DNA from: a virus
Taxonomy: Duplodnaviria; Heunggongvirae; Uroviricota; Caudoviricetes
Reading direction: 5' to 3' (one strand)
Virus record (IMG/VR): IMGVR_UViG_2690316028_000014
Span: 1 to 17,345 of that record
Length of the DNA stretch: 17,345 nucleotides
Numbering within the stretch: position 1 is the stretch's first letter; each line of letters begins with the position of its first letter. The position numbers and the translations under genes are program-made. Below, one piece after another: positions 169-17,345 of this stretch. The notes under the pieces are model-generated. The model had not been told where the DNA came from, made no database searches, and worked only from the letters and a program-made list of their open reading frames with translations.

Positions 169-171
169 AGG

Positions 172-764: not shown

Positions 765-765
765 C

Positions 766-1900: not shown

Positions 1901-2769
1901 GCTGCCCCCTTGGAACGGTAAGAATCCCAGGTGAATGACAGCGTGCACCCGCCGCCGTCGCTCATGCGGTCAATAACACGCTCACTCACGAACGCTGCCA
2001 GTTCTTCTTTGGTCTGGTTGCTGATCAGGATGGTCGGCTTCATACGCTCATAACGGGTGTTGATGATTTCGAACATGATCAGCTTCTCGGCCTCGCTGCC
2101 GAACTGGACGCCAACTTCGTCGATGATCAAAAGGTCCGGAGTGGTGAAGTGCGCAATCACGTCGTTCTCGCAGCGCGTCGCTGTTTTCGACCACGTTGAT
2201 TTGAATTCGCGGGCAATCTTCAGCGCGGTGGTGAAAATTACCGGGCTCTGGTGGTTCTCGATGACATAACGGGCGATCGCCAGGGCGAGGTGGTTTTTAC
2301 CGGTTCCCGGCTTGCCGCACATCACCAGGCCACCACCCTGCTTCAGGCGCTCTGGCCACTTCGCGGCATACGCCTGGCAAACCCGCAGCGCGCGCTCTGA
2401 CTCCTTCCCCACCGGCTGATAGCTTTCCAGCGTGCACGTTACAAAGCGCTCAGGGATTTCGAGCTGGCGCAGCAGGCGATCGATGTTCTGCTGGCGCGTG
2501 CGGTCTTCCCACCGCTTTTTCTCGTCATACAGGAAGGTCAGCTCATCGCGAAGGCAGCCCGGACAACGAGTCGGCGGTGACGGCAGCTTGATCAGGCTGC
2601 TGGTAAGCACGCGTTTACGCTGTTCGTACTCGCCATGTTTCTCGCAAAGCACTGTTTCGAAGACGGTCTCGCAGTTAGGGAGCTGCTCTGGAGGTCTACC
2701 AAGGACTTCCAGCATTTTTTCGATAGCGTCGATTTTTTCGAGCAGTTCCATACTCAGTCCCTCGCCCAA
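1897..2769 (-). CDS. DnaC/IstB-like AAA+ helicase loader (replication protein, lambda P position)
   Basis: Walker A GKPGTGKNHLA and Walker B LLIIDEVG; N-terminal Cys pairs; lies immediately downstream of and overlapping the O-like initiator. Confidence 0.85.
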   Translation of the reverse strand: MGEGLSMELLEKIDAIEKMLEVLGRPPEQLPNCETVFETVLCEKHGEYEQRKRVLTSSLIKLPSPPTRCPGCLRDELTFLYDEKKRWEDRTRQQNIDRLLRQLEIPERFVTCTLESYQPVGKESERALRVCQAYAAKWPERLKQGGGLVMCGKPGTGKNHLALAIARYVIENHQSPVIFTTALKIAREFKSTWSKTATRCENDVIAHFTTPDLLIIDEVGVQFGSEAEKLIMFEIINTRYERMKPTILISNQTKEELAAFVSERVIDRMSDGGGCTLSFTWDSYRSKGAA

Positions 2770-3608
2770 GATGGAATTTCAGTCTGGCCATAGTCCTTGC
2801 CAGCGAAGTTCTCAGATACGCGAGACTGATTGCGGGCTGGCTGCTTGATGCCTTTCGGCTCAAACAATCCCTGCCAGCCGTTCGCAATGCTCTGGTTGAT
2901 GATTTCTTCAGGCTGATATCCGCTGCACTTGCAACGCTCGAGCAGGTTGATGGCCTGGGTAACCGTCTGCTGAGACTTGATCGGTTTCTTCAGGTCGCGA
3001 CGATAATCGACCCATGACTTCCAGACTGAAACTGACAGCCATTCAGGAAGCTCAACACCGGCCGGATCGAACGAAGCCGGTTTGGGGGATTTAGGGGGTT
3101 TATTAATATTGTCTTTATTGTCTTTTGTATGTTTGTCTTTTGTGTTTACCTGATTTGGGTAAGTGTCGTTACCTGATTCGGGTAAACATTTCTTACCTGA
3201 TACGGGTAAATTTACCTCTTTCAGGTAAACTTTGTTTTCGTTACCTGATTTGGGTAATTTCACCCATTCGCTGACCGATTTGTTAATGCCCACAGTTCGC
3301 CCGATTTGGGTAAACACCCCGCGCCTGACTAACGCACTTTTAGCCGCAGAGCATTTGTGTGGGAGGATTCCGGTCAGGGCAGATAACTGATCATTGCTTA
3401 CCCAGTCCGCCTTTTTGTTGAAACCGTATGTTTTGCGCATTACTGCCATGAAGACCAGCAGCTGATGCTGAGACAATCCAGCCAGCATGACAGCCTCCAG
3501 AAGTTCATTGGCGATGCGCGTATAGCCATCATCAAGATCTGCCACGCGCGGCTCCTTAGGTGCCACGTCAGGCACAGGGAAATTGATTACTTCGGCAGTG
3601 TTTGCCAT
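2754..3608 (-). CDS. O: Replication initiator, lambda O-like
   Basis: N-terminal region (ANELLEAV...LSQHQLLVFMAVMRKTYGFNKKADWVSNDQLSALTGI...KCSAAKSALVRRGV) matches the lambda O N-terminal domain family; iteron array and AT-rich tract lie inside the gene as in lambda; RBS GGAG before the ATG at 3606-3608. Confidence 0.85.
   Translation of the reverse strand: MANTAEVINFPVPDVAPKEPRVADLDDGYTRIANELLEAVMLAGLSQHQLLVFMAVMRKTYGFNKKADWVSNDQLSALTGILPHKCSAAKSALVRRGVFTQIGRTVGINKSVSEWVKLPKSGNENKVYLKEVNLPVSGKKCLPESGNDTYPNQVNTKDKHTKDNKDNINKPPKSPKPASFDPAGVELPEWLSVSVWKSWVDYRRDLKKPIKSQQTVTQAINLLERCKCSGYQPEEIINQSIANGWQGLFEPKGIKQPARNQSRVSENFAGKDYGQTEIPSWARD
3146..3313. repeat. Replication origin iterons (ori-lambda-like) inside the O-like gene, with adjacent AT-rich tract at about 3100-3145
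   Basis: Five to six copies of an internally palindromic 17-mer TTACCTGATNNGGGTAA at 3146-3162, 3169-3185, 3193-3209, 3212-3228 (degenerate), 3241-3257 and a partial copy at about 3299-3313; flanked by ttattaatattgtctttattgtcttttgtatgtttgtctttt. Confidence 0.7.
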
Positions 3609-3611
3609 AAT
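3583..3611 (+). promoter_or_regulatory. Candidate sigma70 promoter antisense to the O start (possible OOP-like antisense RNA promoter)
   Basis: TTGATT (3583-3588), 17-bp spacer, CATAAT (3606-3611) on the plus strand, reading into the cII-O intergenic hairpin at 3645-3677. Confidence 0.3.
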
Positions 3612-3690
3612 TGCTCCTGTGAATTGATCCAGTTAATTCCATCTGAAAGCCGTTGGTGTTACAGCACCGCGGCTTTCGCCCATTCTGCGT

Positions 3691-3912
3691 TCATGCTTCA
3701 AAATCTCCCTTCGCTCCATCCCGGTTAGAAATCAGGATGGCCAGCAGCAGCGACATGTTCGGTACCAGGCTCTCCTGCCAGCGGCTTACGGTTGATTTAT
3801 TTCTGCCAGCAACTTCAGCTATACGTGATATCCCCAGATCAGATATCTGGCTGCGTAACCAACTCTCTATCCTCCTAGCCTCCAATTTGTTGCGTGCGGT
3901 TGATGTCTCCAT
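3691..3912 (-). CDS. cII: CII-like transcriptional activator
   Basis: 73 aa; RIESWLRSQISDLGISRIAEVAGRNKSTVSRWQESLVPNMSLLLAIL parallels the lambda CII HTH core as recalled; RBS AGAGGAAG; located downstream of cro. Confidence 0.75.
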   Translation of the reverse strand: METSTARNKLEARRIESWLRSQISDLGISRIAEVAGRNKSTVSRWQESLVPNMSLLLAILISNRDGAKGDFEA

Positions 3913-3950
3913 TTGCGATACTTCCTCTGATTTAATTGGTTATGCCGCCA

Positions 3951-4184
3951 TTAGGCGGCGTTGTTGTCGATCGGTGATGGGAACAGCGTCGGTAAGTCAG
4001 GGCGAATCTGGTAGGCCTGAATTTCACCACCAGTTGCTTTCACGATGCTGTTCACATGCTCCGGAGAAACCTTTGCTTTGTTGTGTAGCCACTTGTAAAC
4101 CGCCTGCTGCGATACTGCGCATGCTTCACCAAGGGCTTTTTGAGACCCGACGATGGTAATGGCGGTTTTAATGGTTGGATTCAT
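3951..4184 (-). CDS. cro: Cro-like HTH repressor
   Basis: 77 aa HTH protein (QKALGEACAVSQQAVYKWL) transcribed divergently from cI across an operator-rich intergenic region; RBS GGAGG. Confidence 0.7.
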   Translation of the reverse strand: MNPTIKTAITIVGSQKALGEACAVSQQAVYKWLHNKAKVSPEHVNSIVKATGGEIQAYQIRPDLPTLFPSPIDNNAA

Positions 4185-4288
4185 AACAACCTCCGTAGTG
4201 AATATAAATGAAGAATAAAACTATGGTTGTATTTAGTCAACAACCATTTTCGTTTGATGAAATAAAACCACGGTTGTAGATTGCGTAT
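4185..4288. promoter_or_regulatory. Immunity switch (OR-like): back-to-back pR-like and pRM-like promoters with ACAACC/GGTTGT operator repeats
   Basis: 25-bp palindrome ATGGTTGT-N9-ACAACCAT at 4223-4247; further ACAACC/GGTTGT copies at 4187-4192 and 4273-4278; minus-strand promoter TTGACT (complement of 4235-4240), 17 bp, TATTCT (complement of 4212-4217); plus-strand TTGATG (4254-4259), 17 bp, TAGATT (4277-4282) ending 6 nt before the cI ATG with no SD. Confidence 0.6.
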
Positions 4289-5014
4289 ATGAAAACGACA
4301 CTCGCTGAAAGACTGAAGGAAGCCAGGACATTACGAGGCCTTACACAAAAGGCTCTCGGGGATCTGGTTGGGGTAAGCCAAGCTGCTATCCAGAAGATAG
4401 AAACGGGAAAAGCTAACCAGACAACAAAGTTGGTAGAGCTGGCAAATGCTTTGATGGTTAAACCTGAATGGCTAAGTTCAGGTGTTGGCCCCATGCGATC
4501 AGACGCTAAAGAATCAAATATTGGTCCTGAATCAGAGTGGGGAACTGTCGACGCATGGGACAAAAACACCCCGCTTCCTGCTGACGAGGTTGAAGTGCCT
4601 TTTCTTAAGGATATTGAATTTGCTTGTGGCGATGGACGCGTTCAATGCGAGGATCACAATGGCTTTAAGCTCAGGTTCTCAAAGGCAACCCTCCGACGCG
4701 TTGGAGCTAATACAGATGGGTCTGGCATCCTGTGCTTCCCTGCTACTGGCGACAGTATGGAACCCGTAATACCGGATGGTACGACTGTAGCCGTCGATAC
4801 GAACAACAAACGCATAGTTGATGGGAAACTGTATGCCATTGGTCAGACAGATGGCGGGAATGGTCAACTCAAGCGCATTAAACAGCTGTATCGTAAGCCA
4901 GGCGGAAAGCTAATTATCCGCAGCTACAACAATGAGGCCTACCCTGATGAAGAAGCTGACATTGATGATGTTGAGATAATCGGCCGCCTCTTCTGGTACT
5001 CGGTATTGCTGTAG
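4289..5014 (+). CDS. cI: CI-type prophage repressor (HTH_XRE N-domain plus S24 LexA-like peptidase C-domain)
   Basis: N-terminal HTH (LTQKALGDLVGVSQAAIQKIETGK); C-terminal GDSMEP with Ser156 and Lys195/198 at lambda-CI-like spacing; candidate Cys113-Gly114 autocleavage site. Confidence 0.9.
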   Translation: MKTTLAERLKEARTLRGLTQKALGDLVGVSQAAIQKIETGKANQTTKLVELANALMVKPEWLSSGVGPMRSDAKESNIGPESEWGTVDAWDKNTPLPADEVEVPFLKDIEFACGDGRVQCEDHNGFKLRFSKATLRRVGANTDGSGILCFPATGDSMEPVIPDGTTVAVDTNNKRIVDGKLYAIGQTDGGNGQLKRIKQLYRKPGGKLIIRSYNNEAYPDEEADIDDVEIIGRLFWYSVLL

Positions 5015-5118
5015 CGGTGGCCTGAAGAGACGTTTGGTTAAGGCCAGCAACGGATCACAACAAACACATGGGGCGGCGGATTAAGGGTGATGGAGAATCG
5101 AAATAAGTTGAGGTCAAC

Positions 5119-5274
5119 ATGAACACGTTCAGCATAATCGCGATACCTTTTTTTGCCCTTTCAGTGGTTCTGTTGACTCTTGGCGCTACCAGGAAGAACC
5201 AAGCCAGCTTCATCGTTGGCGGCGTGTTTATGGCGTCATGCGTGGTTAATGCCATTATCGGCATGTCTCTTTGA
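5119..5274 (+). CDS. Small hydrophobic membrane peptide (51 aa, two predicted TM segments)
   Basis: ATG at 5119 with GAGG 5 nt upstream; MNTFSIIAIPFFALSVVLLTLGATRKNQASFIVGGVFMASCVVNAIIGMSL; below the ORF-track size cut-off; about 100 bp downstream of cI. Confidence 0.4.
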   Translation: MNTFSIIAIPFFALSVVLLTLGATRKNQASFIVGGVFMASCVVNAIIGMSL

Positions 5275-5466
5275 GCGCTATGAGATCAGGCATCCTCGTT
5301 ACTTTGTCATGTGTGACAGCCTGGTATGCACTCTGCGAGCTTTGATGTGGTTTACCACTTTAATAGTCACCGTATCACTAAACTGATTAGCTTTACTCAT
5401 ACTCTTGTGGATTCGCTATTTCTGATGTCAATGCAAAAAAATACTAAGGAAACAAAAAGGATACTT

Positions 5467-5733
5467 ATGTCAGATAACACTATTAAAATCATACCTCAGC
5501 ACATGACCGCCACATCAGTTCTTATTACGCCTGATCGTGCTGAAACAATCATTACTTTTTACCGCCATGAATTTGAGCATCACATGCAGTCTGATGAGCA
5601 AGGAAAGAATAGCTTCCAAGTAAAAGTTGAGTTGACCCCTAACATGTCAGTCTCAATGAGCCCGGATCAAGCTGTTGCATTAGTAAAATCATTACAGGTA
5701 GCTCTCAGGGATAATGGGCTATGGAAAGACTGA
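5467..5733 (+). CDS. Hypothetical protein (88 aa) in the AT-rich cI-adjacent island
   Basis: Track ORF 5326..5733 trimmed to the ATG at 5467 preceded by AAAAAGGA; visibly AT-rich coding sequence; no recognised family. Confidence 0.5.
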   Translation: MSDNTIKIIPQHMTATSVLITPDRAETIITFYRHEFEHHMQSDEQGKNSFQVKVELTPNMSVSMSPDQAVALVKSLQVALRDNGLWKD

Positions 5734-6371
5734 AGCCAGTTTCTTCAGTTCAACCTACCTCAGGAACAACATCATCAGTTCTTCCAAGTATTATAGTTAG
5801 TGCAACCCTAGCAGCGACAACCGTTTCTCCTTATGGGGATCCATCTCAGTACCAAAGTATTGGTATTGATGCTAAGGTATCAAATAGAGTTTCATACGCC
5901 ATGGACGAAACGGGTTTGCGCCCAAGTAAGGAAGATGTAGCGATGAAGAGTGATACCCTGGAGGTAAGCGTGAGCGGAATGTCCAGAGAAGAACTTGACG
6001 CAAAGCTTTCACAAAACAAATCAGAGGTAGAGTCTATTGCTGCGGAAATGCGTCGCGAATCAGCTGACTTTAAAACCTATTATACTCAGCAATTTTCTTC
6101 TATTGAGAGAGGTATTGCTGAAATTAAAGGTGAAATCGGCGGTTTGAAAACGGGACTTACAACGACTCAGTGGGCGATGGCCGTTGGCTTGACTTTAGTT
6201 ACTGTGATTCTGTCTGGCGTGATGTTAGCCTCAAGTTGGATTATCTCCGGCAATGACAAGTCACCATCAGTAACCAGCCCGGCTCCAATTATAATACAGG
6301 TACCGACACAGCAACCATTAACGAGCGCTCCAACTAACCAATCGTCATCACAACAAGCTCCTAAGCAATAA
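5721..6371 (+). CDS. Membrane-anchored protein (216 aa): S/T-rich N-region, coiled-coil, C-terminal TM helix, S/T/Q/P-rich tail
   Basis: Long open frame in AT-rich DNA; start overlaps the upstream stop by 13 nt; alternative internal start at about 5944 with strong RBS TAAGGAAG; TM segment WAMAVGLTLVTVILSGVMLASSWII; followed directly by a terminator. Confidence 0.6.
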   Translation: MERLKPVSSVQPTSGTTSSVLPSIIVSATLAATTVSPYGDPSQYQSIGIDAKVSNRVSYAMDETGLRPSKEDVAMKSDTLEVSVSGMSREELDAKLSQNKSEVESIAAEMRRESADFKTYYTQQFSSIERGIAEIKGEIGGLKTGLTTTQWAMAVGLTLVTVILSGVMLASSWIISGNDKSPSVTSPAPIIIQVPTQQPLTSAPTNQSSSQQAPKQ

Positions 6372-6376
6372 ATAAA

Positions 6377-6403
6377 CCCGGCCACCGCGCCGGGTTTTTA
6401 TTT
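6377..6403. terminator. Bidirectional Rho-independent terminator
   Basis: CCCGGC-cacc gc-GCCGGG hairpin (6377-6394) followed by TTTTTATTT on the plus strand and preceded by AAATAAATAAA (U-tract for the minus strand); ends both the plus-strand island and the minus-strand 68-aa ORF. Confidence 0.75.
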
Positions 6404-6604
6404 GCCCTTCCGTACCATCTCAGCCGCATCCCGTAGCACCCCCTTGTGGATCACGTTCCCGACGGCTTTACGCTTCCCTTCCAGAAATCCCACAATGTTG
6501 TCTTTGTTGATCTCAATCCCGTTGTAAATCAGTTCGAACACCACACACCCAACCTCTCCAGCCATGAAGGCCATCCGGTCATCTGCAAGTTCATCACGTT
6601 CCAT
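6398..6604 (-). CDS. Hypothetical protein (68 aa), convergent with the cI island
   Basis: Track ORF 6398..6958 trimmed to the ATG at 6602-6604 with GGGGGTGG upstream; E. coli-like codon choice; the longer N-terminal extension runs through AT-rich promoter DNA and is rejected. Confidence 0.5.
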   Translation of the reverse strand: MERDELADDRMAFMAGEVGCVVFELIYNGIEINKDNIVGFLEGKRKAVGNVIHKGVLRDAAEMVRKGK

Positions 6605-6688
6605 AGCCACCCCCTGATGTTTTTTGCAGCATAGCACCAATCTTTTATAAAAATAAATTCCTTTTAAATACAACCAAATAAAACCAAA

Positions 6689-6742
6689 ACAACTATAAAT
6701 ACAACTATTGTTGTTGACGATAAAACAACTATGGTTTTTAAT
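6689..6742 (+). promoter_or_regulatory. OL/pL-like operator-promoter cluster driving the early-left (recombination-int) operon
   Basis: Three direct ACAACTAT copies at 6689, 6701 and 6725 (12- and 24-bp phasing) plus an inverted GTTGTTG; promoter TTGACG (6714-6719), 17 bp, TTTAAT (6737-6742); shares CTATGGTT with the OR region. Confidence 0.5.
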
Positions 6743-7287
6743 AAGTCCATCGAAACGAAACATCGACAGCTGAGCGAAGTTAGCCAGCGGCGGACAGCAA
6801 GTCGCCTGCTTCTTTAACAAATCAGACTGAGTGACAGGCAAGCCGTAGCTCTCCTGGCAAAAAGAAATGGCACCCGATGGGATCGAGGTAAGCACTGAGT
6901 CCGTATGCGTACGGTAGGTGTAGAGGACCACGCTGCGATGAGCTGATAAGTCACTCAATTTGAAGCGCTCCGATGATGGGGCGCTGATTCAACTTAGAGG
7001 AGTGATTCCAATGAAGAACTAAAGCGGACAGACCGCAGCCTAAAGGCAATGCAGCAGTAATGATGCCGCCCTGAGTCGCCGAATGGCGAGCCTGTGTAGT
7101 GATGGGTCAAGGTTCTTATATCAAAACAAGCTCCGGTAAAGCAGCGCGAACGCCAGACGCGCACCGGTTATGAGCGGCGATGAGCGACAAGGTCTCAAGG
7201 GCATGTGCGCGGCCACTGCGAGAGTGTGGCGAAGTTTACCAGCAGCTCTTTGCGAGGGGCTGACGGTAAACAAAAAGAGGAGTGTGT

Positions 7288-7629
7288 ATGGCAGATAAAA
7301 AAACGGCGCCACTACTGCTTAACGTAGACGCCAGCGAGGTACTTACTCAGACCGGGGAGCTTTTAAAGTTACTTGAACTTCCAGCCAGTTCCTTTCAGGG
7401 AATTCCTGAGCATGTCGTCGATCTGTTTTTTGACCGTGTCCGTGGCCTGATTGACAACATCGTCCTTAGTGATTTCTCGACCACAGTCAGCACAACTGAC
7501 GCCGGTGAAATTTGTCTCAAAGTCAAAATCATCGGGCTGGTTGAACATCTCACTTCCGCAGTCAGGGCACACGGTCCGCATGGTTTGCATGAATATATCC
7601 TTTCTACTGTTGGGGAGATTAAAGAGTAA
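7288..7629 (+). CDS. Hypothetical protein (113 aa), first ORF of the early-left operon; mutually exclusive with the antisense zinc-ribbon ORF
   Basis: Strong RBS GAGGAG 5 nt before the ATG at 7288; on the strand transcribed from the pL-like promoter; Leu codons mostly CTT/TTA, so it could be a shadow of the minus-strand ORF. Confidence 0.35.
   Translation: MADKKTAPLLLNVDASEVLTQTGELLKLLELPASSFQGIPEHVVDLFFDRVRGLIDNIVLSDFSTTVSTTDAGEICLKVKIIGLVEHLTSAVRAHGPHGLHEYILSTVGEIKE
7369..7590 (-). CDS. Candidate zinc-ribbon protein (73 aa), antisense to the 7288-7629 ORF
   Basis: CPDCG-(19 aa)-CADCG four-Cys motif; RBS AAAGGA 7 nt before the ATG at 7588-7590; host-preferred codons; the Arg-rich N-terminal extension in the track (to 7821) is rejected. 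Confidence 0.35.
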   Translation of the reverse strand: MQTMRTVCPDCGSEMFNQPDDFDFETNFTGVSCADCGREITKDDVVNQATDTVKKQIDDMLRNSLKGTGWKFK

Positions 7630-7848
7630 GCGATTTCTTGCTGTTGGGGAATAGCGGGAAAGCGCGCGCCGGGCGCGGATAAATACCCCGGCACTAACTG
7701 GAATGTTTTGGGCTGGCAGACGGTTATCAGCTAGTTGGTGAGGTAATGGCTCACCAAGGCGACGACGGCCTTCCCTGCTGCTTGAAAGCGGGGAGCCAGC
7801 ACCAAAACATTTCTCCCGCATCAGCGGGTAACGACAGAGGGTAAGGGT

Positions 7849-8094
7849 ATGTCAGATAAGCAGGTTCAACTGTCTGGTAAATGCGTCTTGAAGATAGACA
7901 CCATCAAAGGCAGCAGCACTATCGAAATACCAAAAGTGAATCTCAGCGGCAAAAACAATGCAGACGCTTTGCTTAATGAAGTGTTCCATTTTGGAGTAAT
8001 GCGTCACGGGAAAAACAAGCTTCGCGAAATGCTTGAAGAGAAGCTTGATGGCTACGGGGAAGAGTACGAAAACCATGGCCTCACTTACGACTGA
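7849..8094 (+). CDS. Hypothetical early protein (81 aa, acidic C-terminus)
   Basis: RBS AGAGGGTAAGGG before the ATG; immediately followed by an intrinsic terminator. Confidence 0.6.
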   Translation: MSDKQVQLSGKCVLKIDTIKGSSTIEIPKVNLSGKNNADALLNEVFHFGVMRHGKNKLREMLEEKLDGYGEEYENHGLTYD

Positions 8095-8115
8095 CCCGCT
8101 CCGGCGGGTTTTTTA
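8095..8115 (+). terminator. Rho-independent terminator (tL1-like)
   Basis: CCCGC-tccg-GCGGG hairpin followed by TTTTTT; a second hairpin GGCAGA-N8-TCTGCC follows at 8129-8148. Confidence 0.7.
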
Positions 8116-8255
8116 TCGGCCATACATAGGCAGATTTTCGAGTCTGCCCATTTATGACAACCGGCGGCCATCCACCGCCCATTGAAACACTGAATAAATG
8201 CGTTGAAGTCTTGTATTAACCGTTCCGTTCGCCGCGATAAGGCCAAGAGGAAATC

Positions 8256-8384
8256 ATGGTAAACCAGCAGCAGATCAGAGAGGCCCAACGGCTCGCGTCG
8301 TTCGCGGTGCTCCATCGCAATGCTCCGGCGTGGGAAGAAGCAATACGCCTTTACGCCGTCGCCATCGGGAGGACTCTTCACTGA
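8256..8384 (+). CDS. Small ORF (42 aa), translationally coupled to the downstream gene
   Basis: ATG at 8256 with GAGGAA just upstream; stop TGA overlaps the next ATG (TGATG at 8382-8386); MVNQQQIREAQRLASFAVLHRNAPAWEEAIRLYAVAIGRTLH. Confidence 0.3.
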   Translation: MVNQQQIREAQRLASFAVLHRNAPAWEEAIRLYAVAIGRTLH

Positions 8385-8581
8385 TGGAAACTTTATTCGC
8401 ACTCGTCCTGACCGTGGCAATGACCAACGGTGATTATCAGGATGTCATTCTCGGCGTTTACGACAGCCAGCAGGAATGCAGCCTGGCAGCTACAGAGCAG
8501 AAAGTGTCAGCTGAGTGCTGGCCGGTAGAAAGCATCATCCGCAACGGCGAGTTCCCGGCGAAATCCATCGCGCAGCAGTAA
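8384..8581 (+). CDS. Hypothetical small protein (65 aa; hydrophobic N-terminus, acidic)
   Basis: Track ORF 8330..8581 trimmed to the ATG at 8384; METLFALVLTVAMTNGDYQ...; occupies the position lambda uses for kil/cIII-type genes. Confidence 0.5.
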   Translation: METLFALVLTVAMTNGDYQDVILGVYDSQQECSLAATEQKVSAECWPVESIIRNGEFPAKSIAQQ

Positions 8582-8651
8582 CCACCCTATTCAACCGATC
8601 GGCCTGGCTCAATGCGGGCGGGATCTGCACATCCAAATTTCAGGAGAAACC

Positions 8652-9620
8652 ATGAGCGAAGTAACGGATTTAGTCGTCATTGAGAAACAGAACGCAATGG
8701 CGGTGTTTACCAGTAAGGAACAGCTCGATCCGATTATCGAGGCCATCGAGAAAGAAGCTCGTACCCTGGTACCCGATCTGACTACGAAGAAAGGTCGCGA
8801 CGCGATCGCATCCATGGCGCATAAGGTTGCCCGCTCCAAAACCTATATCGACAACGCCGGCAAGGATCTGGTTGCCGAGCTTAAAGCCCTGCCGAAGCAG
8901 ATCGACGAAAGCCGCCGCATTGTGCGTGAGCGGCTGGACGCGCTGAAGGATGAAGTACGGCGCCCGCTCACAGAATGGGAAGCCGAGCAGGAACGCATTA
9001 AGGCTGAAGAAGCCATGAACGCGATGCACGCCGAAGCGCTGGAGATGAACATCAGGTTCGATCAGGAGCTGGCTGCCAAGTTCGAAGCGGACCACGAAAT
9101 GGCCCTGCTGATGAACAAGGATTTCGACCGTGACCGCGAAGAGCAGCGCCGCCTGGCGGAACAGGCTCAACGCGAGCACGAAGAGCGCATTAAGCAGGAA
9201 GCAGCTGACAAAGCCAAGCGCGAAGCCGAAGAGAGGCATAAAGCGGAATTGGATGCTGCAGCACGTCGCGAAGCTGATGAGAAAGCTCGCGCTGATGCCG
9301 CCGAGCGTAAGCGCAAAGAAGATGCTGACCGTGCAGAACGTGAGAAGCAGGACGCAATCGCAGAAGAAAAACGCAAAGCGCAGGAAGAAGCAGATCGCAT
9401 CAAGCGCGAAGCTGAAGCTAAAGAGAAAGCCCGTCTGGCCGAAGAGCAGCGCAAAGTTGAAGAAGAAGCGCGCCGCGCCGCAGACAAAGAGCACCGCCGC
9501 ACCGTCAACCGTCGCGTCATCGCCGACCTTATAGCTCAGGGCATCCCCGAAGAATTCGCGCAGAAAGCACTGCTGGCGATCGCTGGCGGCAAAGTGCAGG
9601 ACGCGCACATCAAATATTGA
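8652..9620 (+). CDS. Phage protein with conserved-looking N-domain and a long ER/K-rich charged helix (322 aa)
   Basis: RBS AGGAG; about 170 aa of E/R/K/A-rich sequence (KAEEAMNAMHAEALE...EEKRKAQEEADRIKREAEAKEKARLAEEQRKVEEEARR); the antisense track ORF 8670..9644 is a shadow. Confidence 0.8.
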   Translation: MSEVTDLVVIEKQNAMAVFTSKEQLDPIIEAIEKEARTLVPDLTTKKGRDAIASMAHKVARSKTYIDNAGKDLVAELKALPKQIDESRRIVRERLDALKDEVRRPLTEWEAEQERIKAEEAMNAMHAEALEMNIRFDQELAAKFEADHEMALLMNKDFDRDREEQRRLAEQAQREHEERIKQEAADKAKREAEERHKAELDAAARREADEKARADAAERKRKEDADRAEREKQDAIAEEKRKAQEEADRIKREAEAKEKARLAEEQRKVEEEARRAADKEHRRTVNRRVIADLIAQGIPEEFAQKALLAIAGGKVQDAHIKY

Positions 9621-9627
9621 GGCAACC

Positions 9628-9912
9628 ATGAACGCATACCTCACTTATGACCGCATCGAAGATCGGCGCTGGGCTGAACAGCAGCTCACCGACGAGAAAG
9701 AGAAGTGGATCGACGACCGGGCGCAACAAATCATCGACATGATGCCAAAAGAGCCGTCCGGCCTCTTCCACTTCTCCGTACCGATTGACGCCAGTCCATA
9801 CGAAGGACTTCGCAGCGATAAAGCTGGCGAGGCCTACAACGATTTCATTTCGGCAGTTGCTTACGCCCAGGCGGAATACGACTGGGAACACCGTACCGGC
9901 TGCCCATTTTAA
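9628..9912 (+). CDS. gam: Gam-like RecBCD inhibitor
   Basis: 94 aa; MNAYLTYDRIEDRRWAEQQLTDEKEK...LFHFSVPID parallels the lambda GamS N-terminus as recalled ([30 protein letters not shown]...LFESLCID); sits immediately upstream of bet. Confidence 0.8.
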   Translation: MNAYLTYDRIEDRRWAEQQLTDEKEKWIDDRAQQIIDMMPKEPSGLFHFSVPIDASPYEGLRSDKAGEAYNDFISAVAYAQAEYDWEHRTGCPF

Positions 9913-9930
9913 TTTTTGAGGGGATTAACG

Positions 9931-10776
9931 ATGGCAAACGAATTAACAATCACAGCGACGTCGCTTCAGGAGATAGGCGTCGACGTCTCCACCTGGAGCG
10001 CGCTGAAGAACAGCATCTATCCTGGCGCCAAAGACGAATCGGTAATGATGGCGCTTGACTACTGCCGCGCCCGCCATCTGGATCCGTTGCTCAAACCTGT
10101 CCACCTCGTTCCGATGTACGTCAAAGACTCGAAAACAGGTAAAGGCGAATGGCGCGACGTCGTCATGCCGGGCATCGGACTTTACCGCATTCAGGCAGAC
10201 CGCTCCGGCGATTATGCCGGGGCTCGCGAGCCCGAGTTCGGGCCCGACGTAACTCAGACGCTTACTGGTGTCGAGGTGACCTTCCCTCAGTGGTGCAAAT
10301 ACACCGTTTTCAAGCGCATGCCCAGCGGCGAGATCGTCGAGTTCAGCGCTAAAGAATACTGGATTGAAAACTACGCCACCGGCGGACGTGACACCACGGC
10401 GCCGAACGCGATGTGGAAAAAACGCCCGTATGGACAGCTGGCGAAATGCGCAGAAGCCCAGGCGTTGCGCAAGGCATGGCCTGAGATTGGACAGCAGCCT
10501 ACTGCAGAAGAAATGGAAGGCAAATCGCTGGACGTTGATATTCGTGACGTCACCCCGCGCAGCACCACAGAAGCGCTTCCACCAGCAGCAAGCGAAGAAA
10601 CACTTCAGGCGATCACCGATCTCTTAACATCGCTGAATAAAGACTGGGAGCAAGACTTCCTCCCAGTGTGCAGCGACATCTTCAAACGGCCAATTCTTGA
10701 GGCGTCAGACCTCACTGAAGAAGAGGCACAGAAAGGGTTCAACTTCCTTCAGAAAAAAGCTAAGGCGGCAGCATGA
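9931..10776 (+). CDS. bet: Bet/RecT-family single-strand annealing protein
   Basis: C-terminus [40 protein letters not shown] parallels the lambda Beta C-terminus as recalled; start set at the ATG at 9931 (RBS GAGGGGA) rather than the track TTG at 9916; followed by exo with ATGA overlap. Confidence 0.85.
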
Positions 10777-11453
10777 CACCCGAAATTATCCTGGCCAGGA
10801 CCGGCATTGATGTGTCCACCGTAGAGCAAGGTGATGAAGCATGGGCCAAATTAAGGCTCGGAGTTATCACCGCCTCTGAAGTGCACAACGTAATATCCAA
10901 GCCGCGCTCCGGCACCAAATGGACGGGCATGAAGATGTCCTACTTCCACACCCTACTCGCCGAGGTATGCACCGGCGTCGCGCCAGAGGTTAACGCCAAG
11001 GCTCTGGCCTGGGGAAAGCAGTACGAGGAAGACGCCCGCACCCTCTTCGAGTTCACCACCGACGTGAAAGTCACGGAGTCTCCGATCCTGTTCCGTGACG
11101 AGAGCATGCGCACCGCGTGCTCCCCTGACGGCCTTTGCAGTAACAATTTCGGCCTCGAATTGAAATGTCCGTTCACCTCCCGCGACTTCATGAAATTCCG
11201 CCTCGGCGGTTTCGAAGCCATTAAGTCAGAGTACATGGCCCAGGTGCAGTACAGCATGTGGGTGACCGGGAAAGAAGCCTGGTTCTTTGCCAACTACGAC
11301 CCGCGCATGAAACGCGAAGGTATTCACCACGTCGTCGTTGAGCGGGATCCGCAGTACATGACCGATTTCAACGAAATGGTGCCGGAGTTCATTGAGAAGA
11401 TGGACGAGGCGCTGGCGGAAATCGGCTTCACGTTCGGGGAGCAGTGGAAATGA
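10773..11453 (+). CDS. exo: YqaJ/lambda-Exo-like recombination exonuclease
   Basis: 226 aa, called by its position as the partner immediately downstream of bet, with ATGA translational coupling at both ends; family assigned from this context and general sequence character, not from verified motifs. Confidence 0.8.
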
Positions 11454-11878
11454 AACGCGCACCCTTTTACCGCAGGCCAGGGCGAACCTGGCAATTCTCT
11501 GGCCTCCGTGAGCGCGTTATCTGGATGATTCAGACGCGAGGCCGCCCGGTAACCGGTAGCGAAATCGCTGAGAAGTTTGGCGTAACCCTGATCGAGTTTA
11601 ACCGGGTCGCCAACGGCATCACCCGCGGCTCCGGACAGATAGCTCAGATCGTTGAGTCGGAAAAATGGCTCAACGAGGACGGCATCTGCGACCGGACATT
11701 TGACCTGGTAACGAAGCCAAAGGTCATTACACCGCAGGGAAAATCACGGCTATTCACCCGGCGCGCCATTGAGCAGTCGCAGGAAGGCAGACGGCAGGAA
11801 TGCATTGAACGTGCAGCACGCCGTCGCCGCCTGATTGCTCAGGGCCTCTACATCGACGAAATGGAGTCCATCCTATGA
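11450..11878 (+). CDS. Hypothetical protein (142 aa)
   Basis: ATG at 11450 overlaps the exo stop; in-frame GTG at 11444 is the track start; possible HTH-like segment ([22 protein letters not shown]). Confidence 0.6.
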
Positions 11879-12027
11879 CTCACGCTCACGACGACATCAG
11901 GGTAGGCACATTGTGCCTTCCCTTCATTGGTCACGGCTGGCTAATGCCATGGGGTGAAGTGGTCAGCAATCCATTAAAGGCGCAGCGGCTCGCTGAGGAA
12001 TATCGGGAAAGGCAGGAGGCGGCATGA
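11875..12027 (+). CDS. Small ORF (50 aa) coupled at both ends (ATGA/ATGA)
   Basis: ATG at 11875 overlaps the upstream stop and its own stop overlaps the methyltransferase ATG at 12024; GGAG 8 nt upstream; [50 protein letters not shown]. Confidence 0.35.
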   Translation: MTHAHDDIRVGTLCLPFIGHGWLMPWGEVVSNPLKAQRLAEEYRERQEAA

Positions 12028-14216
12028 AATACGGAAGCGTGTGCAGCGGCATAGAAGCTGCCAGTAAAGCGTGGGAACCTCTCGGCTGGAAACCTGCCTG
12101 GTTCTCTGAAATCGAACCATTCCCCTCAGCCGTCCTCGCCCATCACTGGCCGGAAGTAACCAACCTCGGCGACATGACCAAAATCGCCGATGCGGTCCGC
12201 GCTGGTGATGTCGAAGCGCCTGATGTTCTGGTCGGTGGTACGCCCTGCCAGGCATTCAGCATCGCCGGCTTACGCGAAGGCCTGTCTGACGACCGCGGGC
12301 AATTAACTCTTTCTTACGTGGAATTAGCCAATGCAATCGACACAAAGCGCCGCGAACTCGGTGAACCAGAATCAATCATCGTCTGGGAAAACGTCCCCGG
12401 CGTGCTCAGCAGCAAAGACAATGCCTTCGGGTGCTTTCTGGCAGGGCTTGCCGGAGAAAGCAGTGAGTTGCAGCCAGCAGGGGGAAAATGGACGCACGCA
12501 GGTTGTGTGTCTGGACCAGAAAGGGTTATCGCCTGGCGCGTCCTTGATGCTCAATTTTTCGGAGTGGCCCAACGACGCCGACGTGTGTTCGTTGTCGCAA
12601 GTGCTCGAAAAGGATTCGATCCCGCAGCGGTACTTTTTGAGTTCGACAGCGTGCGCCGGGATTCTGCGCCGCGCCGAGAAACGCAAAAGGCTGTTGCCGC
12701 CCTTACTGCACGAGGCGTTGGAACGTGTGGCGCAGACGACAACCAGGCACAAGCTGGACATCTGATTGCTTTTGGCGGTGGCAATACTACCGGCCATATT
12801 GATGTGGCGACCGCCTGCACCGCGCATGGGATCAGATTGGATTTTGATACTGAGACTTTCGCAGTGCACGGCACGCAGGATCCAGATACCAATTGCGAAC
12901 TGGCGCATACACTTGGGCGAAACAACGGACAAGAAAACGCCTGCATCGCATTTAGCTACAAAGATAATGGCGCTGATGCGACGTCGGATTTATCGCCAAC
13001 GATTCGCGCAGGAAACCACGATAAAAGCCATGCCAATAGCGGCCAGCCGCCAGCTATAGCGTATGCATTCAAGGCCGGACAGGGTGCTAAAGCGGGTGGC
13101 ATTGGTTACGCGGAAGAGCAATCACCGACATTAACCAGCGCCAGCAGCGGAACCAATCTTGCACCAGCGGTAATGCATGGCGTGGCAGTTCGACGACTTA
13201 CGCCAATTGAGTGCGAGCGGCTTCAGGGCTTTCCTGATAGTCACACTCTGATCGGCTGGCGCGGGAAGGACGCTGATGAATGCCCGGACGGGCCACGTTA
13301 TAAAGCTATCGGCAATAGCATGGCAGTACCGGTTATGCGTTGGATTGGTGAGCGCATCGCCGCTGCGCTTCCAGTCGAAGAGCCTGCACCGCGCAACTGG
13401 CAGCGCCCGTTCCTTAAATGGGCTGGCGGCAAATATTCGCTGCTGCCGGAACTGGATCGCCTGATCCCCGCAGGGAAACGCCTTATTGAGCCTTTTGTGG
13501 GTGGCGGCTCGGTGTTCCTTAACTCAGACAAGCACGAACGCTTTCTTCTGGCTGACGTCAACGCTGACCTGATTAACCTGTATCAGATGCTGGCGGTGGT
13601 CCCAGACTCGGTGATCTATGAAGCAATGAAGGCGTTCAGGCATCTGAATGATGCCGAAAACTACACGGAAATTCGTGAAGCATTCAACGCGCAGCGGCTG
13701 GATGCGGTTGAGCGCGCAGCAGCATTCCTTTACCTCAACCGGCACTGCTTCAACGGCCTGATCCGTTACAACCTGGACGGTTTTTTTAACGTCGGCTTTG
13801 GGAAATATAAAGCGCCATATTTCCCGGAAGAAGAGATCAGGGCATTTAAGCGGAAGGCTCACTCATGCGTATTCATGAATGCAGGCTTCAGGCGCACGCT
13901 CGCACTGGCTGGTGATGGTGACGTCATTTACTGCGATCCGCCCTATGAACCGCTTCCCGGCACCGCTGGTTTCACTAACTACGCGGCTGGTGGGTTCTCA
14001 TGGGATAGCCAGGTAGAGCTTGCGGAAAGCTGTGTGGCAGCCCACCAGCGGGGGGCAAAAGTGGTAATCAGCAATTCTACCGCACCGCGCGTAATTGAAC
14101 TTTACAAACAGCACGGCTTCACTCTGCACCGCGTAAGTGCTCGCCGCGCTATATCCAGCAAAGGCAGCACCCGCGAAACAGCGAGTGATGTCGTAGCCAC
14201 TTTGGGAGTGCAGTGA
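12024..14216 (+). CDS. Fused DNA methyltransferase: N-terminal C5-cytosine MTase (Dcm-type) plus C-terminal Dam-like N6-adenine MTase
   Basis: C5-MTase motifs SGIEAAS (I), GGTPCQAFS (IV), VWENVPG (VI), QRRRVFVVA (VIII), RRLTPIECERLQGFPD (IX), GNSMAVPV (X) within about aa 1-450; then KWAGGKYSLLP, EPFVGGGSVF and DPPY in about aa 455-730; single uninterrupted 730-codon frame with RBS AGGAGG. Confidence 0.85.
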   Translation: MKYGSVCSGIEAASKAWEPLGWKPAWFSEIEPFPSAVLAHHWPEVTNLGDMTKIADAVRAGDVEAPDVLVGGTPCQAFSIAGLREGLSDDRGQLTLSYVELANAIDTKRRELGEPESIIVWENVPGVLSSKDNAFGCFLAGLAGESSELQPAGGKWTHAGCVSGPERVIAWRVLDAQFFGVAQRRRRVFVVASARKGFDPAAVLFEFDSVRRDSAPRRETQKAVAALTARGVGTCGADDNQAQAGHLIAFGGGNTTGHIDVATACTAHGIRLDFDTETFAVHGTQDPDTNCELAHTLGRNNGQENACIAFSYKDNGADATSDLSPTIRAGNHDKSHANSGQPPAIAYAFKAGQGAKAGGIGYAEEQSPTLTSASSGTNLAPAVMHGVAVRRLTPIECERLQGFPDSHTLIGWRGKDADECPDGPRYKAIGNSMAVPVMRWIGERIAAALPVEEPAPRNWQRPFLKWAGGKYSLLPELDRLIPAGKRLIEPFVGGGSVFLNSDKHERFLLADVNADLINLYQMLAVVPDSVIYEAMKAFRHLNDAENYTEIREAFNAQRLDAVERAAAFLYLNRHCFNGLIRYNLDGFFNVGFGKYKAPYFPEEEIRAFKRKAHSCVFMNAGFRRTLALAGDGDVIYCDPPYEPLPGTAGFTNYAAGGFSWDSQVELAESCVAAHQRGAKVVISNSTAPRVIELYKQHGFTLHRVSARRAISSKGSTRETASDVVATLGVQ

Positions 14217-14458
14217 TGATGAAGCTGATTAATCGCAGTAAGCAATCACCTATTGGTCGCCGCGCTTGCGATGTTGCGCTGGCGGCGCACCACGCAAAAT
14301 ATGGCGATTACGGCAGGCAGAAGCACCAGACAAATTACACCGTTGAGGTGGATGGCATGAAGGTCACCGTCGAAGTCGTCAACCGGGCCACCAGCTATGT
14401 CGCCACAGCAATGATCGGCGTTCGTAAACTTCGAAACCTGCCAGCACAGGCACACTGA
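14216..14458 (+). CDS. Hypothetical protein (80 aa)
   Basis: ATG at 14216 overlaps the methyltransferase stop (TGATG); GGGAG 8 nt upstream; track start at 14213 is an in-frame GTG. Confidence 0.55.
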   Translation: MMKLINRSKQSPIGRRACDVALAAHHAKYGDYGRQKHQTNYTVEVDGMKVTVEVVNRATSYVATAMIGVRKLRNLPAQAH

Positions 14459-14499
14459 ATAACAATGACGGCCCCGACTGGGGCCACTGGAGAACATCG

Positions 14500-14847
14500 A
14501 TGGACGAAGAAGTATTTACCAGAGATGAGGCCGCCGCCTTCCTTAAAGTGGATAAAGGCACGATTGCCCAGTGGATAAAGTCCGGTCGCCTGGCTGCTAC
14601 CCGAAAAAATCCACATAAGAAAAAAAGCCCATACCTGATCTGCAAAACAGACTGTATTGCGGCAGTGAAGAACCCGATCCACAATCAACCTGTGAATGCG
14701 GTTGATGTGCAGGAGGATAAAGCATGTCAATCAAACAACGTGCCGGTACGTGGCACTGCGACTTCGTTACGCCTGGTGGAAGTCGAATTAGACGGTCTCT
14801 TGGGACAACGGACAAAAGGCAAGCGCAGGAGCTCTATGATCAGCTGA
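14500..14847 (+). CDS. xis: Excisionase (Xis/AlpA-type HTH)
   Basis: N-terminal [26 protein letters not shown] matches the excisionase-family HTH; directly upstream of int, overlapping its start by 124 nt in another frame. Confidence 0.6.
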
Positions 14848-15887
14848 AAGCTGAAGCATGGCGAGTTGATAAGATGGGGGAGTTTAAGCCGCGAACGTTC
14901 GATGAAGCGTGCGTTCGCTGGCTTAACGAAAAGCAGCACAAGAAAAGCCTGGACGATGACAAAAGCCGGATCGGATTCTGGAGGATGCACTTCAAAGGAA
15001 TGGACCTGTCAGCAATCACGGAAGACAGGATCTTGTCGGCGGTGAGTTCGATGGTTAATCGCAAACATCGAATGAACTGGGAGGCTAAACGGGACAGCCT
15101 GCTGCGAAGAGGTAAGCCGGTTCCTGAATTTAAGGATAAACCAGCGTCGCTGGCGACGAAGGCGACGCACCTTGCTTTCATCCGGGCGCTGTTACGATGC
15201 GCGGCCAACGAATGGCGATGGATAGCCAAAGCGCCGAACATCAAATGCCCGGTGCCGAAAAATAAGCGTATTCGCTGGCTAACCAAAGAGGAAGCGGCGA
15301 ACCTGATCCGGGAGCTTCCCGAGCATATGAAGCCAGTTGTTATTTTTGCACTGGCGACAGGGCTGCGCAGATCGAACATCACCGATCTGGAGTGGTCACA
15401 AATTGATATGCAGAGGAAGGTCGCGTGGATTCACCCCGAGGACGCGAAAGCAGGAAGGGCGATTGGGGTCGCCCTGAACGAATCGTCCTGTAAGGTGCTG
15501 CGGGAGCAACTGGGGAAACATAACCGTTGGGTCTTTGTTCACACTGAATCATCCGTTCGCCCGGATGGAACGAGAACAAAGGCAGTGCGCAAAATGCGGT
15601 CTGATGCTAACACGGCATGGCGCGCGGCGTTAAGGCGGGCGGGAATAGAAAATTTCCGCTTCCATGACCTGCGGCACACCTGGGCAAGCTGGCTTGTACA
15701 GTCCGGCGTGCCACTCAGTGCGCTACAGGAAATGGGCGGGTGGGAAAGTATCGAGATGGTGCAGCGTTATGCGCATCTGGCACCGAATCACCTGACGCAG
15801 CATGCCATGCAAATCGACTCATTCCTGGCGGGGAATGGCACAAATATGGCACAAGGCGCTTTTGCTGAACTGGTGAATATCGCGTGA
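14724..15887 (+). CDS. int: Tyrosine integrase (P22-like)
   Basis: 387 aa; RBS AGGAGG; catalytic signature [15 protein letters not shown] ... VQRYAHL (R-H-R-Y family); ends 15 bp from the tRNA-Thr 3' end. Confidence 0.9.
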
Positions 15888-15901
15888 ACCCGCGTGGTTA
15901 G

Positions 15902-15977
15902 TGGTGCCGATAAGAGGAGTCGAACCTCCGACCTTCGCATTACGAATGCGCTGCTCTACCAACTGAGCTATATCGGC
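15902..15977 (-). tRNA. thrW: tRNA-Thr (anticodon CGU)
   Basis: Reverse complement reads GCCGATATAGCTCAGTTGGTAGAGCAGCGCATTCGTAATGCGAAGGTCGGAGGTTCGACTCCTCTTATCGGCACCA: 7-bp acceptor stem, D-loop AGCTCAGTTGGTAGAGC, anticodon loop TTCGTAA, T-arm GGTTCGA, encoded CCA. Confidence 0.9.
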
Positions 15978-16091
15978 CCTGAAAGGACATGTTCACGAAC
16001 GTGAATCACGGTGGACAAGGTTAAAACTAACCGGGCGATGCGTCAATGGCCTTGTGAATCAAATGGCTACTTTTGCATCACCCGGTTTTAT

Positions 16092-17345
16092 TTACGCACG
16101 AATGGTGTAATCACCAATGCCGATCCACTTGTAAGTGGTCAGTGCTTCCAGCCCCATTGGGCCACGCGCGTGGAGTTTTTGTGTGCTTACCGCCACTTCC
16201 GCACCCAGACCAAACTGGCCGCCGTCGGTAAAACGCGTAGAGGCGTTAACGTAAACAGCGGACGAATCCACTTCGTTAACAAAACGCTGGGCGTTGCGCA
16301 TATCGCGGGTCAGGATCGCATCGGAGTGTTGTGTGCCGTGTTCACGAATATGGGCGATGGCATCGTCAAGATCGCTGACGATTTTGACGTTCAAATCTAA
16401 TGACAGAAACTCATCGTCATACTCTTCGGCTTTAACAGCAACCACCTTCGCAGGGCCTGCCTGCAACTGCGCCAGTGCAGCTGCATCTGCGTGTAATGTC
16501 ACGCCGCTTTCCGCCATTTGTTTGCTTAATGCGGGCAGGAAGCTATCGGCGATGTTTTTATTCACCAGCAACGTTTCAACCGTATTACATGTGCTCGGTC
16601 GCTGAGTTTTCGCGTTGACGATCACTTTTAATGCTTCAGCGATCTCTACACTTTCATCAACGTAAATATGGCATACGCCTATACCACCTGTGATCACCGG
16701 GATTGTCGACTGTTCACGGCACAGTTTATGCAAACCAGCGCCACCACGCGGGATCAGCATGTCGATGTATTTATCCATACGCAGCATTTCACTGACCAGC
16801 GCACGGTCAGGATTATCAATCGCCTGCACGGCACCCGCCGGTAAGCCGCAGGATTTCAGGGCGTCCTGAATCACCGCCACCGTTGCAGCGTTAGTGCGAC
16901 ACGTTTCTTTGCCACCGCGCAGGATCACCGCATTACCGGTTTTCAGGCACAGCGAAGCGACATCAACCGTCACGTTCGGGCGCGCTTCATAAATCACGCC
17001 AATAACCCCCAGCGGTACGCGACGACGCTCAAGACGCAGGCCGCTGTCCAGTACGCCGCCATCGATTACCTGCCCCACCGGATCGGCGAGGTTGCACACC
17101 TGACGTACATCGTCGGCAATGCCTTTCAGCCGTGCGGGCGTCAGTGCCAGACGGTCAAGCATCGCTTCGCTAAGGCCATTGGCTCGCGCGTCAGCAACAT
17201 CCTGGGCGTTAGCGTTGAGGATGATTTCGCTTTGTGCTTCCAGTTCATCGGCGATTTTTTCCAGCACGCGATTTTTTTCGCGGCTGGAGAGTTGCGCTAA
17301 TTTATACGAGGCTTGCTTCGCAGCAATGCCCATTTGTTCCAGCAT
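16092..17345 (-). CDS. proA: Gamma-glutamyl phosphate reductase
   Basis: Complete 417-aa ORF ([30 protein letters not shown]...) recognised as enterobacterial ProA; start codon is the last three bases of the window; host gene flanking the prophage. Confidence 0.95.

Follow-up and report, generated by a model that had tools for sequence, protein, structure and literature searches.

What is the function of a protein that consists, for a large part, of one long and highly charged predicted helix, and that is encoded directly in front of the recombination genes of a phage? This question is raised by a gene of 322 codons plus stop at 8652-9620 on the plus strand of a 17,345-nucleotide stretch of caudoviral DNA (IMG/VR record IMGVR_UViG_2690316028_000014, positions 1 to 17,345), herein called the window. 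The gene is a member of a catalogued but uncharacterised family that combines a known structural element—the ER/K-type single α-helix (SAH)—with one homolog of published phenotype, gp53 of the Pseudomonas phage D3. With confidence slightly above even, the 322-aa (amino acid) protein is read here as an autonomous accessory factor that is directed at DNA ends or at RecBCD and whose two domains are spaced by a stiff helix.

The charged tract is real, although it is shorter than an earlier sequence-only reading of this locus had described. That reading gave about 170 residues consisting almost only of E, R, K, A, D, and Q. The clean run comprises 125 residues (aa 161-285), 90% of which belong to this set, with 54% E, R, or K, 22% Ala, and 6% hydrophobic residues, whereas the span of ~170 residues (aa 116-285) falls to 82% and contains 13% hydrophobic residues. 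Within aa 161-285, 48 pairs of opposite charges are spaced i/i+4 versus 23.6 expected from composition (z 6.5). Opposite charges at i/i+3 reach a z of 1.9, like charges at i/i+4 are depleted (z -4.9), and the dominant charge period is 7.8 residues. A 3.5-residue periodicity was not found in this tract for hydrophobic residues, Ala, or the combined set, the power lying below the shuffle mean in each case. The i/i+4 salt-bridge pattern of SAH type noticed earlier is thus borne out. The tract has the sequence hallmarks of a single α-helix, and a heptad coiled coil is disfavored—as a candidate for aa 161-285 it was ruled out on the low hydrophobic content and the missing 3.5-residue periodicity. 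These features would fit a monomeric helix. If straight, its 125 residues would span ~19 nm, and a helix that is continuous from residue 81 to 295 would reach up to ~30 nm. At the DNA level, Tandem Repeats Finder detects no tandem repeat beneath the tract, and the AT skew over window positions 9001-9500 is 0.52.

ER/K-type SAH domains are known from myosin VI, myosin X, and caldesmon. The tract shares with them a very high content of E, K, and R, opposite charges at i/i+4, a charge period of ~7-8 residues, the lack of a hydrophobic seam, and a position as spacer between globular domains. It differs from the classical ER/K motifs in being richer in Ala, Asp, and Gln, and in occurring in a phage protein. 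Conservation of the repeat region among relatives was assessed on 254 loci from four viral-contig scans, which were seeded with enterobacterial, Pseudomonas, Vibrio, and Sinorhizobium branches; counts are given herein over 252 loci or 86 non-redundant clusters. An ER/K tract is present in all 86 clusters, so that the repeat is not a peculiarity of this one protein. Its length ranges from 30 to 205 residues, with a median of 135 and an interquartile range of 117-146. The linkers of 99 homologs have a median i/i+4 z of 4.0, and z exceeds 3 in 75% of them; for D3 gp53 (tract of 137 aa) it is 4.3 and for Sf6 gp33 7.4. Hence, the tract is conserved in kind among homologs and variable in length.

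The tract is flanked, as had been proposed, by a conserved N-terminal domain and a short conserved C-terminal domain, both of which are defined by an alignment of 102 diverse sequences (boundaries in Table 1). The N-domain has the core motif VPDxSTxKGRxxIAS...SKTYLDxxGKxLVAExKxxPKxIDxxRKxxRDxLDxL..EVRxPLTxWExEQ. Two of its positions, K78 and E110, never vary, and another 22 columns reach a conservation of 90% or more. The window protein carries every invariant or near-invariant column, including the motifs VPD..T.KGR, SKTY.D..GK, PK.ID..R, and R.PL..WE. The stalk that follows is poorly conserved in sequence and ~29% hydrophobic. Because aa 81-160 show a hydrophobic 3.5-residue periodicity (p 0.004), this part is considered an amphipathic helix and not an ER/K helix. 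The C-domain of ~40 aa follows the consensus HRKxINxxAxxxLxxxGxxxxxAKxxxxAIAxGxIxxVxIxY; its I320 and Y322 are at least 90% conserved, and the window protein accordingly ends in ...VQDAHIKY.

An AlphaFold2 (AF2) model calculated from the 102-sequence alignment is all-helical with a mean predicted local distance difference test (pLDDT) score of 85. Helices are predicted at residues 12-20, 22-38, 46-76, 81-208, 216-295, and 300-311, with a low-confidence break at 209-215, and the pLDDT of the N-domain lies mostly at 65-95. The maximum 19-aa Kyte-Doolittle hydropathy is 0.88 versus a threshold of ~1.6, meaning that no membrane segment is present. The 322-aa protein is soluble, all-helical, and built in three parts. 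Its N-domain does not fall into a well-characterized family of unrelated function, an outcome that would have spoken against the earlier reading: it has no relative in Pfam, NCBIfam, or the PDB, its profile giving nothing below E 0.18 in the latter. For the C-domain, sequence comparison with the PDB returned only UBA-domain matches that are not significant (E 0.36 and 1.4); they are a weak lead that the C-domain may be a protein-binding module. Compared by sequence with the PDB, the full profile matches only ER/K-rich eukaryotic proteins. Foldseek finds no significant match of the AF2 model in the PDB, the best hits being generic helical bundles (E 0.25), and in BFVD it matches only four family members. 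The BFVD models of homologs superpose at root-mean-square deviations (rmsd) of 26-79 Å.

The protein matches phrog_1376 with an E-value of 4e-107 over residues 1-322 and profile positions 1-362 of 362. PHROGs lists this family as of unknown function, and Pfam and NCBIfam scans of the protein and 102 homologs yielded nothing relevant, only scattered low-complexity matches. When residues 1-160 were run with HMMER against 1.84 billion cluster representatives (50% identity), 5219 clusters were matched at E <= 1e-3, 3868 of them even at E <= 1e-10. By tblastn, the family occurs in 185 sequenced phages; the host genera are Pseudomonas, Vibrio, Escherichia, Shigella, Klebsiella, Yersinia, Erwinia, Shewanella, Acinetobacter, Sinorhizobium, and others. 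Nearly all full-length representatives have the layout of N-domain, variable ER/K linker, and ~40-aa C-domain. The C-terminus ends in hydrophobic-x-[YF] (h-x-[YF]) in 76 of 86 clusters, and the C-domain is accompanied by the N-domain in 250 of 251 occurrences. Relatives with N-domains at least 92% identical measure 312-370 aa and bear several divergent C-domain types. The nearest relatives of the window protein are found in Enterobacter and Klebsiella (95-97% identity over the N-terminal 160 aa). Many database entries for close homologs (P0002, P0005, P0008, and others) are flagged partial and end inside the ER/K region; since short-read assemblies break in the tract, the linker length is underestimated from partial entries.

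Split and fused forms of the gene occur as well. In CUS-3, Huey, Louie, and phiv205-1, the gene is annotated as two coding sequences (CDS) split within the linker, and in PHROGs the N-domain by itself and the linker together with the C-domain form families of their own (phrog_17211, phrog_21365). Either frameshifts within the low-complexity region or truly split genes could lie behind these cases. The E. coli protein P0103 (266 aa) joins the N-terminal part of the family protein to a Dam methyltransferase domain (PF02086); its match to the 161-aa query covers 61% of the latter at 99% identity. This protein probably stems from a deletion that joined the family gene to the downstream methyltransferase gene, which would remove gam-bet-exo.

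To describe the genomic surroundings, co-directional neighbors were called and clustered, and representatives were annotated. An annealing protein or a recombination exonuclease is encoded at most four genes away in 238 of 252 loci and 73 of 86 clusters, and the recombination gene is mostly the next or next-but-one gene downstream. Four unrelated families of annealing proteins are represented: RecT/Redβ (25 clusters), ERF (22), Rad52 (12), and AAA_24/Sak4 (6). Other neighbors are exonucleases of YqaJ (51 clusters) or DUF3799 type, SSB, GamL, Arf, and Kil homologs. The family gene precedes Erf and Exo in D3 and PAJU2; Erf, YqaJ, and NinB in phiLM21; and GamL, Bet, and Exo in Klebsiella ST101-KPC2phi6.1. 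In Sf6, gene 33 is followed by cIII, kil, Erf, and SSB, and in Vibrio phiV039C the family gene comes after Erf and SSB. With GamL beside it in just 14 of 86 clusters, the family gene accompanies recombination modules of four annealing-protein families, and not gam specifically. Phage recombination genes are nearly always found close to it, whichever annealing-protein family they encode. A role in recombination, which had been suggested from the place of the gene before gam-bet-exo, hence gains from the neighborhood as well as from experiments on D3 gp53 (PMC12407980), whereas the link to gam in particular falls away.

The C-domain does not mirror this diversity. A single C-domain type, that of the window protein included, occurs with RecT-YqaJ, Rad52, Sak4-SSB, and GamL-RecT modules. 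The C-domain type does not track the type of annealing protein, which makes a role of the C-domain as specific adaptor for the cognate annealing protein improbable.

Experimental data come from D3. BLASTP aligns D3 orf53 (354 aa) with the window protein end to end at 35% identity (E 5e-42). Both proteins share the N-domain motifs and the C-terminal domain, which ends in ITINY in D3, and both genes share the position directly upstream of the annealing-protein and exonuclease genes. D3 has Erf as partner and lacks GamL, whereas the window prophage encodes GamL and a RecT/Bet-type protein; the hosts are Pseudomonas and Enterobacterales, respectively, and the Gabija phenotype is known for D3 gp53 only. 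It was reported by Hong et al. (2025, bioRxiv 10.1101/2025.08.30.673261; PMC12407980) that D3 escapes Gabija only via deletions removing orf52-66. Deletions that remove orf53 are well tolerated, gp53 being dispensable for growth, and gp53 is one of three redundant Gabija "licensing factors" (PMC12407980). Provided in trans, orf53 alone restores Gabija targeting; it also cross-complements an escaper of the unrelated phage JBD30 and sensitizes a transduced plasmid (PMC12407980). Herein, gp53 acts without Exo-Erf, making injected linear DNA a target of Gabija, and it shares this effect with the other licensing factors Exo-Erf and Mu Gam (PMC12407980). Escape requires RecBCD of the host, and licensing factors are accordingly proposed by the authors to deny RecBCD access to linear DNA ends (PMC12407980).

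In the reading favored here, the window protein would act on linear DNA ends or on the host machinery that processes them (RecBCD), and not on the cognate annealing protein. The N- and C-domains would be interaction modules, and the charged helix a stiff spacer, ~19 nm long for the clean tract, that separates them. Several points weigh against this reading. We know of no biochemical activity of any family member. The N-domain is not basic, with a median net charge of +1, and thus gives no support for simple DNA binding. The prophage already encodes GamL, which would make an anti-RecBCD role redundant here. Monomeric helicity is deduced from sequence only, and the break in the AF2 model at 209-215 would be compatible with a folded-back hairpin. 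The functional evidence stems from a 35%-identical Pseudomonas protein and an unreviewed preprint (PMC12407980), and the Gabija effect of gp53 could be indirect.

Lambda Gam, phi80 GamL, Mu Gam, and P22 Abc2 are encoded in the same module as the family, which often co-occurs with GamL, the window prophage included, and D3 gp53 matches Mu Gam in its genetic effect on Gabija (PMC12407980). Domain scans and Foldseek reveal no similarity in sequence or fold between the family and Gam, GamL, Mu Gam, or Abc2.

The same neighborhood could also be explained if the protein were a dedicated partner of the annealing protein and exonuclease encoded by the same phage. As a mediator or scaffold, it would recruit or tether these two to each other or to DNA and have no independent activity. 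The gene tightly adjoins the genes of such pairs, usually directly upstream and in the same operon, and such modules are known to contain small accessory proteins, as P22 Arf and Abc1 exemplify (PMC12315714). However, one C-domain type with a near-identical N-domain stands beside RecT, Rad52, and Sak4 modules, and a dedicated partner would need to recognize four unrelated annealing-protein folds. In addition, D3 gp53 works without Exo-Erf and on a heterologous phage and plasmid (PMC12407980). A dedicated partner is therefore considered rather unlikely.

A function unrelated to DNA ends, such as host takeover, regulation, or another kind of anti-defense, would render both the genomic context and the Gabija phenotype incidental or indirect. 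Accessory genes form a mosaic in early-left operons, and no recognizable recombination gene lies near the family gene in 13 of 86 clusters. Gabija is also licensed by GemA and gp66, neither of which is known to bind ends (PMC12407980). Against this stands the breadth of the association, which spans phages of Enterobacterales, Pseudomonas, Vibrio, and Sinorhizobium as well as four annealing-protein families and is hard to reconcile with chance linkage; an unrelated function is likewise judged improbable.

The charged region may also be pictured as an antiparallel hairpin or a dimeric coiled coil that joins the N- and C-domains in the manner of Rad50 or SMC proteins. The two long AF2 helices, 81-208 and 216-295, with the low-confidence break between them would fit such an arrangement, the two domains almost always co-occur, and pairing is conceivable between the N-terminal 11 residues and the C-terminal tail, neither of which is helical. 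However, aa 161-285 contain only 6% hydrophobic residues and lack a 3.5-residue periodicity of hydrophobic or Ala residues, and the predicted arms are unequal in length, 128 versus 80 residues. The wide rmsd range of the BFVD homolog models is consistent with differing overall shapes. The window protein also differs from hairpin proteins like Rad50, SbcC, and SMC by the lack of a heptad signal in 161-285, of an ATPase motif or domain, and of a zinc hook. Folding of this kind is regarded as quite improbable. TolA domain II is a long K/A/E-rich helix. The product names "TolA" and "cell envelope biogenesis protein", which phage records often give to family members, reflect this shared long, charged, Ala-rich helix, but the likeness is compositional only, and a TolA-like envelope protein can practically be dismissed, as the window protein has no membrane anchor, no TolA domain III or other Pfam/NCBIfam domain occurs in 102 members, and the gene sits in a cytoplasmic early phage operon.

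Beyond the accessory factor acting at DNA ends or RecBCD, a wider idea can be put forward tentatively. The family may be a widespread, unrecognized class of phage factors that decide what becomes of linear DNA ends. Its members would exclude or redirect RecBCD-type enzymes or bridge the ends, with an SAH "ruler" setting a fixed distance between their two small domains. The family might then form a general fifth component of proteobacterial recombination modules beside annealing protein, exonuclease, SSB, and Gam, and possibly a remote counterpart of DUF1351 (PF07083). Genes of the latter adjoin RecT/Redβ, Erf, or Sak4 genes in phages of Firmicutes (PMC8093625), and both families thus neighbor phage annealing-protein genes. 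The AF2 model of a DUF1351 protein has a similar N-terminal layout: a short strand or coil, a 17-aa helix, a loop, a ~30-aa helix, a Pro-containing break, and a long helix. A co-linear motif likeness exists between KKLLAxxxKxxKxLDxxR...PYxEFE in DUF1351 and GKxLVAExKxxPKxIDxxR...PLxxWE in the family. In contrast, DUF1351 has a second helical domain in place of the ER/K tract and lacks the h-x-Y C-domain. None of the 102 family members matches the PF07083 model at E <= 0.1, whereas the control DUF1351 protein IME_034 scores 3.2e-18. Despite the co-linear motif matches, hhalign gives E 0.012-0.019 at a probability of only 2.5-3.6%. In BFVD, Foldseek relates the DUF1351 AF2 model to one family member, weakly (E 1.4), and sequence-based and structure-based alignments disagree. 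In widening the DUF1351 profile, a Staphylococcus seed yielded no additions, and the genome collection contributed just four loci. Homology of the family to DUF1351 is not established. As a separate observation, gp14 of Bacteroides phage B40-8 (L266 2333-3169) is a distant tblastn match (E 6e-4) of an Enterococcus phage DUF1351 protein, which suggests that DUF1351-like proteins extend beyond Firmicutes phages.

A family gene accompanies the recombination genes of thousands of temperate proteobacterial phages; its product is listed in databases as "hypothetical" or, erroneously, as "TolA". A literature search returned nothing on the family apart from the Gabija preprint and the survey of annealing proteins in Firmicutes, and a 2025 survey of lambdoid recombination modules omits it from the possible additional module genes (PMC12315714). 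Three findings stand out: the Gabija-licensing protein gp53 belongs to a huge family with a domain/charged-helix/domain design, this family is newly linked to recombination modules of all four annealing-protein types, and its C-terminal domain does not co-vary with the annealing protein. Together, they turn an unexplained Gabija hit into a testable protein family. They are of relevance for recombineering toolkits, which usually clone gam-bet-exo only, and they correct a common misannotation.

The gene at 8652-9620 is genuine, as seen from its strong ribosome-binding site, its operon spacing—the stop codon lies 7 nt before the gamL start at 9628—and conservation on the plus strand only. The long ORF (open reading frame) that runs antisense to it was examined as a gene and rejected; it is a by-product of purine-rich codon usage, in agreement with the earlier view of it as an artifact. 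It is in codon register with the sense gene, meaning that its stops arise only from sense TTA, CTA, and TCA, and the sense gene contains a single such codon. When the gene's own codons are permuted, the median open antisense run is 246 aa, with at least 300 aa in 14% of cases. An antisense run of at least 90% of the gene length exists in only 15 of 86 non-redundant homolog clusters. The antisense translation is rich in F, L, A, and V.

Table 1. Features of the gene, its product, and its surroundings in window coordinates.
Feature	Position	Strand	Evidence
S24-type cI repressor	4289-5014		
Shine-Dalgarno AGGAG	8642-8646	+	5 nt before ATG, read directly from sequence
CDS, phrog_1376 / D3 gp53 / Sf6 gp33 family member, stop included	8652-9620	+	ORF, phrog_1376 match, D3 orf53 BLASTP
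Conserved N-terminal helical domain, aa 1-115	8652-8996	+	Family alignment, AF2
324-aa antisense ORF, not a gene	8670-9644	-	Codon-shuffle control, not conserved in homologs
Amphipathic helical stalk, aa 116-160	8997-9131	+	Composition, 3.5-residue periodicity, pLDDT 95-98
ER/K-rich tract, single-alpha-helix type, aa 161-285	9132-9506	+	Composition, charge pattern
Small conserved C-terminal domain, aa 286-322, two helices and tail	9507-9617	+	Family alignment
gamL, phi80-type host nuclease inhibitor, immediately downstream	9628-9912	+	NF033500 3.5e-46; phrog_1050
bet / RecT-family single-strand annealing protein	9916-10776	+	PF03837 1.8e-27; TIGR01913
YqaJ / lambda-Exo-type recombination exonuclease	10773-11453	+	PF09588 9.9e-31

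The window as a whole is the early region of a lambdoid prophage. It includes replication O and DnaC-like genes and a cro-like gene on the minus strand, and the plus-strand early-left operon extends to the integrase at 14724-15887. Similar prophage segments are carried by E. coli at ~94% identity. Upstream of the family gene, an element that resembles an intrinsic terminator, with a GC-rich hairpin ahead of a T-run, is located at 8093-8110 (+) right after the ORF 7849-8094, ~540 nt from the gene at 8652-9620. In Sf6, the annotated terminator tL2A lies just upstream of gene 33.

Downstream, a 144-aa ORF at 11444-11878 (+) overlaps the end of the exonuclease gene and matches phrog_1680 and, weakly, HTH_11. 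ORFs of this type recur downstream of the exonuclease in 33 loci of 11 family clusters, and relatives are annotated "regulator". The 730-aa ORF at 12024-14216 (+) fuses a C5-cytosine DNA methyltransferase (PF00145) to a Dam-like D12 N6-adenine methyltransferase (PF02086), and at the corresponding place in a related Klebsiella phage, two methyltransferases are encoded by separate genes.

Directly after the cI-like repressor, two overlapping plus-strand ORFs (5326-5733, 135 aa, and 5721-6371, 216 aa) take the place that rexA/rexB hold in lambda and in the related Klebsiella phage. Neither has a Pfam match, and they may be exclusion or defense cargo. Finally, the ORFs 7282-7629 (+) and 7369-7821 (-) overlap on opposite strands. 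The latter encodes 150 aa with the zinc-ribbon motifs CPDCG...CADCG, and the RefSeq annotation under E. coli matches to window positions 7000-12000 includes an "ECs_2282 family putative zinc-binding protein", which may correspond to this minus-strand ORF.

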